Below, in pieces: positions 7,061-7,672 of a DNA stretch of 7,672 nucleotides. Each line of letters begins with the position of its first letter. The first letter of the stretch is position 1. Both the position numbers and the translations under genes were made by a program. The notes below the pieces were generated by a model that was given only the letters and a program-made list of their open reading frames with translations, was not told the origin of the DNA and did not search any database. The stretch comes from a virus. Its lineage: Duplodnaviria; Heunggongvirae; Uroviricota; Caudoviricetes. The stretch is from the IMG/VR virus record IMGVR_UViG_2698536646_000001; one strand, given 5' to 3'.

Positions 7061-7567
7061 ATGAATAATGTATTTCTGTACCGGATGCCTGTTGGCATTG
7101 CCGGGGCTGTCTCTCGCCCGCAGGACTTAACCGTCGAACCGGTGGTCCTTAAATCCGATAACGCCTTCGCTGCCTATGGCCTGGCTGGTAAATACGATGA
7201 TGACGGTTTTTTCGTGCCGCTGGCAGATGGTGATACCGCAGACAAGGTGAAGGGGATCTACGTGCGCCCTTATCCGACCACGTCGCAGCCGGACATGGTT
7301 CGCCAGGTGGGAACAGGCAAGAACTTCCCGGGCGACGCCATGAAGCGTGGCTACGTGACCGTTAATCTCGGTTCTGATTTTGATGCCAGCACTATCAAAA
7401 AAGGCGATCCGGTATACGTTGTCGTCTCCACTGATGAATCCATCAAAGTGCCGCTGGGTGGATTCATGTCCACGTCAGTCAGTGGCAAAAACGTGGTGCT
7501 GACCAACGCTGAATTCACAGGTGCCGGTGATGCTGACGGCAATGCAGAAATTTCCTGGAAGATTTAA
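7061..7567 (+). CDS. DUF2190-like phage head structural protein (possible decoration protein)
   Basis: 168-aa ORF starting 3 nt after the previous stop, with beta-rich, Gly/Asp-rich composition. Size and position downstream of a DUF2213-like gene match that family pairing in phage head modules. Assigned from memory of family features only. Confidence 0.5.
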   Translation: MNNVFLYRMPVGIAGAVSRPQDLTVEPVVLKSDNAFAAYGLAGKYDDDGFFVPLADGDTADKVKGIYVRPYPTTSQPDMVRQVGTGKNFPGDAMKRGYVTVNLGSDFDASTIKKGDPVYVVVSTDESIKVPLGGFMSTSVSGKNVVLTNAEFTGAGDADGNAEISWKI

Positions 7568-7582
7568 GGAACAGACGAATGA

Positions 7583-7672
7583 GGTGATGCTGCCAACTTA
7601 CTGATTTAGTGTATGATGGTGTTTTTGAGGTGCTCCAGTGGCTTCTGTTTCTATCAGCTGTCCCTCCTGTTC
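7583..7672 (+). mobile_element. Left end of IS1 (IRL plus start of insA); the element continues beyond the window
   Basis: GGTGATGCTGCCAACTTACTGATTTAGTGTATGATGGTGTTTTTGAGGTGCTCCAGTGGCTTCTGTTTCTATCAGCTGTCCCTCCTGTTC matches the IS1 left terminus as I recall it (terminal inverted repeat GGTGATGCTGCCAACTTACTGAT). It begins 4 nt after an ATG that has a canonical SD. Confidence 0.85.
7638..7672 (+). CDS. insA: IS1 InsA, 5' end only (GTG start)
   Basis: GTG GCT TCT GTT TCT ATC AGC TGT CCC TCC TGT translates to MASVSISCPSC, the InsA N-terminus with its zinc-finger cysteines. GAGG lies 7 nt upstream. Confidence 0.8.
   Translation, partial: MASVSISCPSC

Follow-up and report, generated by a model that had tools for sequence, protein, structure and literature searches.

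IS1, an IS1-family insertion sequence of Enterobacteriaceae, is 768 bp long. It possesses imperfect terminal inverted repeats of ~23 bp, an insA gene that starts at nt 56 and encodes 91 aa, an A6C frameshift site, and insB'. A -1 frameshift at A6C joins InsA (Zn ribbon/HTH) to InsB'. Insertion of IS1 normally generates target duplications of 8-9 bp. The gal/chl deletions are the classical IS1-promoted adjacent deletions. Such deletions leave a single IS1 at the junction and keep one of the original flanks; no duplication is seen, and the flanks lie collinear with those of an undeleted relative.

The described phages most closely related to the prophage reported here are the Escherichia phage vB_EcoM-606R2 group and Salmonella phage SEN34. 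Over the segment that runs from the DUF2213 gene through the cement gene to the capsid start, the identity is 98.2% for the vB_EcoM-606R2 group and 83.6% for SEN34, in which the next gene is annotated as the major head protein. A prophage with SEN34 as its homologue has been reported in Shigella sonnei 75/02, where PHAST labelled the region CP019689.1 3461614-3492646 (75/02pp10) as "intact" (PMC5447701). CP019689.1 is the chromosome of this lineage IIIc strain, and HE616528.1 is that of S. sonnei 53G, a lineage II strain (PMC5447701). The decay of prophages through IS elements and the reduction of genomes in Shigella are treated, for example, in PMC8072062.

The DNA analyzed here, referred to as the window, is a stretch of 7,672 nucleotides. 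It is most likely a short-read contig of a defective SEN34-like prophage adjoining pgl in S. sonnei. Whereas the vB_EcoM-606R2 group and SEN34 possess a complete capsid and tail module, the prophage in the window ends at nt 4 of the major capsid gene, where an IS1 begins. Sequence comparison indicates that this IS1 marks a deletion of ~20 kb that removed the capsid and tail genes at the prophage locus. The features at the junction are as follows.

7061-7567, + strand: cement (minor capsid) gene, 168 aa, the last intact prophage gene before IS1 (assigned with Pfam)
7566-7570, + strand: AAGGA, ribosome-binding site of the major capsid gene, 8 nt 5' of the ATG (read from the sequence)
7574-7582, + strand: GACGAATGA, 9 bp abutting the IS1 left end, candidate copy of the target site (single occurrence in the window)
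7579-7582, + strand: ATGA, the only 4 nt that remain of the major capsid gene, PF09950, formerly DUF2184 (assigned from relatives)
7583-7605, + strand: left terminal inverted repeat of IS1, 23 bp, GGTGATGCTGCCAACTTACTGAT (exact match)
7638-7672, + strand: start of insA, GTG-GCT-TCT-GTT, with 11 codons plus 2 nt in the window (translation VASVSISCPSC...)

The element at the right edge is IS1, as the original prediction had proposed from the left inverted repeat and the insA start. Positions 7583-7672 are the first 90 nt of IS1 on the + strand and are 100% identical to the complete 768-bp copies in closed genomes (L002-L011). The exact 23-mer occurs once in the window and in 0 of 200 shuffles, with 3 mismatches tolerated. 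The terminal inverted repeats of the element begin GGTGATGCTGCCAAC / GGTAATGACTCCAAC, with the left repeat located in the window and the right repeat in the closed-genome copies. An insA gene is called at the matching position in L002-L006 (PF03811, PF12759), and PF03400 is also found on called genes. The copy in L005 is 768 bp long, encodes a 91-aa insA, contains the A6C frameshift site (AAAAAAC at nt 307), and has an open insB'. From these features, the closed-genome copy looks functional. It differs from a typical IS1 in that the usual 8-9-bp target duplication is missing, which is expected for a copy involved in a deletion.

The last 90 bases of the window have IS1 matches in ~5,000 of 5,426 complete E. 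coli genomes. When 7061-7672 was used as a megablast query against the same 5,426 genomes, 338 were recovered with at least 80% query coverage. The best 30 of the 338 are all IS1-free, and their alignments cover 7061-7582 and end at 7582. The exact break point is therefore 7582/7583. The TAA stop of the 168-aa ORF (7565-7567), the AAGGA, the ATG, and the first base of IS1 had all been placed correctly to the base by reading the sequence.

The gene upstream of the junction had been described as DUF2190-like, a description that does not hold. No DUF2190 match is obtained at E<=10; the 168-aa product matches only PF23982 (4.4e-30), PF22758 Phage_cement (2.8e-21), and, weakly, PF16587. In relatives, the equivalent of 7061-7567 is annotated as "structural cement protein Gp24" and is followed by a "DUF2184 domain-containing protein". 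In the best-matching IS1-free relative, NZ_CP065615.1 (L001), the DUF2184 CDS (8519-9460) begins at the ATG equivalent to 7579, and its product matches PF09950 Major_capside at 6.8e-88. The same PF09950 gene is called in L015, L017-L019, and L021. The interrupted gene is thus the major capsid gene, which had been named as the probable target, and IS1 sits 4 nt into this gene following the cement gene, one base past its start codon. Among the matches listed, all 120 viral contigs with the capsid 5' end retain the native cement-capsid junction.

The IS1 junction turns the capsid start into ATG-AGG-TGA (7579-7587), an ORF of 2 codons. The expected disruption of head-gene expression amounts to its abolition. 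No capsid protein can be made from this start, and the prophage is unable to form particles.

The window itself stops 90 nt into IS1, and the far side is known from closed genomes. Ten closed-assembly loci (L002-L011) were checked at the base level. Identity to the window is 99.9-100% across 7,036 + 482 bases, and six loci have zero mismatches. IS1 is complete in all ten, with a length of 768 bp (769 bp in L011), and in each it is flanked by GACGAATGA on the left and AACAGGGGG on the right. Downstream of the IS1 right end is AACAGGGGGATTTACC-ATG, which opens a 43-codon DNA-invertase remnant. This 43-aa ORF matches the Resolvase N-terminal domain at its N-terminus; its annotation in the relative is a partial DNA invertase. 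The remnant is followed by a spacer of ~250 bp, pgl, and then ybhD; the invertase-remnant side of IS1 is ~400 bp upstream of pgl. Gene calls give the same layout in L013, L014, L016, and L020, although the last two come from genomes already represented by L005 and L010. The source genome of the window presumably shares this far side.

The original prediction had assumed that a 9-bp duplication of GACGAATGA and an intact capsid ORF would follow the IS1 right end. The right end is present in the closed genomes. The repeat is not: the right flank is AACAGGGGG in 10 of 10 closed loci, and no second copy of GACGAATGA is found on either strand of the 21-kb locus L005. Nor is there a capsid gene beyond IS1 at the locus in closed genomes with identical sequence, where the invertase remnant and pgl are found instead. 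Both the left and the right IS1 junctions are absent from all 5,426 complete E. coli genomes. Within this set, the right-flank DNA occurs only in FDAARGOS_943 and FDAARGOS_944, in both cases without IS1. The actual right junction has no matches in viral contigs, probably because provirus calls end before it.

NZ_CP065615.1 (loci L001 and L012), which has no IS1 at this junction, was used as the reference for the size of the missing interval. On this record, the last base of the left flank is 2072055 and the first base of the right flank is 2051424, with order and orientation as in S. sonnei. A single IS1 in the S. sonnei locus thus replaces 20,630 bp of NZ_CP065615.1. In the window orientation, the left part of the reference is composed of the cement, capsid, head completion, tail, and baseplate genes and two IS1. 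In the right part, these two IS1 are followed by tail-fibre genes, ipaHb, the invertase remnant, pgl, and ybhD. The missing interval therefore contains the capsid, head completion, tail sheath, tube, baseplate, and tail-fibre genes and, in the relative, ipaHb. Since the flanks are collinear and 20,630 bp are missing relative to NZ_CP065615.1, the IS1 is a deletion junction and not a simple insertion. The lesion had been thought to cost the capsid gene only its ribosome-binding site and translational coupling; it is a deletion of ~20.6 kb at the locus.

NZ_CP065615.1 is labelled E. coli. The record is rich in IS1 and carries ipaH, and it looks Shigella- or EIEC-like. Its ybhD is itself interrupted by IS1. 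The T3SS effector gene ipaHb is located at L012 5900-7726, at the right end of the prophage and ~475 bp from the deletion end point.

A simple insertion would leave GACGAATGA-TTACTTTTGATCAGG and a full capsid ORF on the far side of IS1, with the late operon intact. The left junction taken alone fits such an event, as does the habit of IS1 to make 8-9-bp duplications, and the far side lies outside the window. This reading is nevertheless refuted for the closed genomes with an identical locus, all of which lack both a duplication and a capsid gene after IS1, and for the genome of the window it is extremely improbable. The junction is in no complete E. coli genome, and the pattern that a simple insertion predicts, the IS1 right end followed by 4-14 nt and TTACTTTTGATCAGGCAACCG (the capsid 5' end), has no match in viral, genome, or metagenome contigs. 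Native sequence precedes the capsid gene in all 120 contigs with its 5' end, among the matches listed. The capsid 5' end in viral contigs of the four IMG genomes that have the left junction is not among the at least 120 loci listed. In the genome of the window, IS1 could also join the cement gene to an unrelated region, by a further IS1-mediated inversion or translocation or through a difference in assembly. One locus points in this direction: in L024 (IMGVR_UViG_2671180338_000008, reverse strand, 7633-9979), the same left junction and a complete IS1 are followed by IS3/IS629-rich DNA that matches no prophage or pgl locus. Shigella genomes are frequently rearranged at insertion sequences (PMC8072062). 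Yet 10 of 10 closed-assembly loci agree with one another, and L024 is derived from a draft, where one should not rely on joins across a repeat of 768 bp. In L024, too, the far side lacks the capsid gene. An unrelated far side is unlikely for the genome of the window, and the right flank of L024 reflects a misassembly across IS1 or else a further, strain-specific rearrangement.

The deletion itself may have arisen from one IS1 copy or from two. With about even confidence, it is attributed to a one-copy adjacent deletion in the SEN34-like defective prophage, which would require two events. IS1 would first insert at one of two sites, either capsid nt 4 or upstream of the invertase remnant. The same copy would then transpose intramolecularly into the other site and remove the interval; a single IS1 between collinear flanks would remain, without a target duplication. 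The locus resembles the classical adjacent deletions in its single IS1, retained original flank, collinear flanks, and lack of duplication. It differs from them in that the event is deduced by comparison and that its product is the same as from IS1-IS1 recombination. In such a recombination, a first copy at capsid nt 4 and a second, direct copy upstream of the invertase remnant would recombine by a RecA-dependent homologous route, and the resulting hybrid would be flanked on the left as the first copy was and on the right as the second was. This route is a real possibility but a less probable one. Its end product would be indistinguishable, and the genomes are dense with IS1: at least 40 IS1 pieces are found in the record of the relative, two IS1 copies lie inside the relative's interval, and a second IS1, likewise without a duplication, is 2.6 kb to the right in S. 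sonnei. Three events are required, however, instead of two, and the relative's two interval copies are opposite in orientation to the S. sonnei IS1 and at different positions. Complete E. coli genomes and the viral, genome, and metagenome contigs yielded no genome with IS1 at one site alone or at both. Precursors with IS1 and a duplication at either site were likewise absent from complete E. coli genomes and from these contig scans, and the ipaH-side flank GACGCAGTGTCTTGTT followed by 0-14 nt and the IS1 left end had no match in viral or genome contigs. The one-copy adjacent deletion is favored over recombination on parsimony, with two events against three; it is in this sense that we infer the mechanism and the order of its events. 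One locus considered as an intermediate, L022, was rejected, as it has a native capsid start and a different, IS3-family element farther downstream.

The boundaries of the window are best explained by an origin as an assembly fragment. Positions 1-86 are the terminal 86 nt of IS2 in inverted orientation, and in closed S. sonnei genomes the full IS2 is located between the holin and endolysin genes. With an IS2 end on the left and an IS1 end on the right, both ends of the window are assembly breaks. A run of 154 N (483-636) is present in the endolysin/Rz region, where closed genomes have 408 bp. A 236-aa ORF at 109-819 that appears to be a lysozyme-Rz fusion, with Phage_lysozyme and Phage_lysis matches, is an artefact of read-through across these 154 N and was discarded.

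Indexed public assemblies contain the product of the truncated portal ORF (4117-5199), as an exact match, in 2,576 blocks. In 2,304 of the 2,576, the longest portal-carrying contig is 5-10 kb, the size of the IS2-to-IS1 fragment, and the junction is thus widespread in draft assemblies. The closed chromosomes that match the window include S. sonnei 53G and 75/02. Because the junction is common to these two strains, it predates the split between lineage II and lineage III.

The prophage has other lesions. The portal gene contains TAG codons at 3907-3909 (TGG, W59, in the relative) and 4108-4110 (CAG, Q126, in the relative), together with an A308V substitution. Gene callers split it into products of 58, 54, and 360 aa. 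Comparison with the relative and closed genomes confirms the IS2 insertion and the two portal ambers, and the IS1 event stands beside them as an independent lesion, as had been suggested. It is the most destructive of the prophage lesions. In the 75/02 strain, the region reported as 75/02pp10, which spans L010, has no capsid or tail genes and carries two portal stop codons, which contradicts the "intact" label.

The terminase ORF in the window (2222-3733) is uninterrupted. NZ_CP065615.1 has its own IS2 (L001 2388-3717) in the large terminase gene, at the equivalent of window 2778-2783, and an internal stop in a Mu F-like head morphogenesis gene. With a terminase IS2 of its own in the relative and an intact terminase in the window, the relatives decay by independent IS insertions.

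The locus is a case of ordinary IS-mediated prophage decay in IS-rich Shigella, and the kind of event is already known. It belongs to the same organism group as the decay treated in PMC8072062 and corresponds to the prophage region 75/02pp10; the particular lesions here, independent of one another, are IS2 beside the lysis genes, the two portal ambers, and the IS1 deletion. A prophage region that is widespread in S. sonnei has no capsid or tail genes at its locus and is not inducible as a phage. Short-read contigs of S. sonnei break exactly at IS elements such as these. Where a contig runs into IS1 beside a start codon, a simple insertion should not be assumed; the loss here is 20 kb. Outside annotation, the significance is small.

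It is very unlikely that the deletion was non-neutral, with its fixation in S. sonnei owed to the DNA that it removed or to the arrangement that it created. If it was, the candidate among the removed items would be the ipaH-family effector gene at the prophage end. The arrangement created would be the inverted-IS1 bracket around pgl-ybhD, with an IS1 end ~400 bp upstream of pgl; it could change pgl expression or make the segment invertible, or mobile as a composite element.

The second IS1 of S. sonnei 53G (L005 16832-17599) is in inverted orientation, 2.6 kb to the right of the first, and has no target duplication. This copy starts 25 nt inside ybhH, and the next gene is ybhJ, so that ybhI is wholly absent and ybhH largely so. 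With this copy to the right, two inverted IS1 copies enclose pgl-ybhD in a composite-transposon-like layout.

In the window, a DedA/VTT-family membrane protein gene on the opposite strand (908-1420, - strand) separates the Rz lysis gene from the terminase region. This gene is conserved in relatives and looks like a moron.
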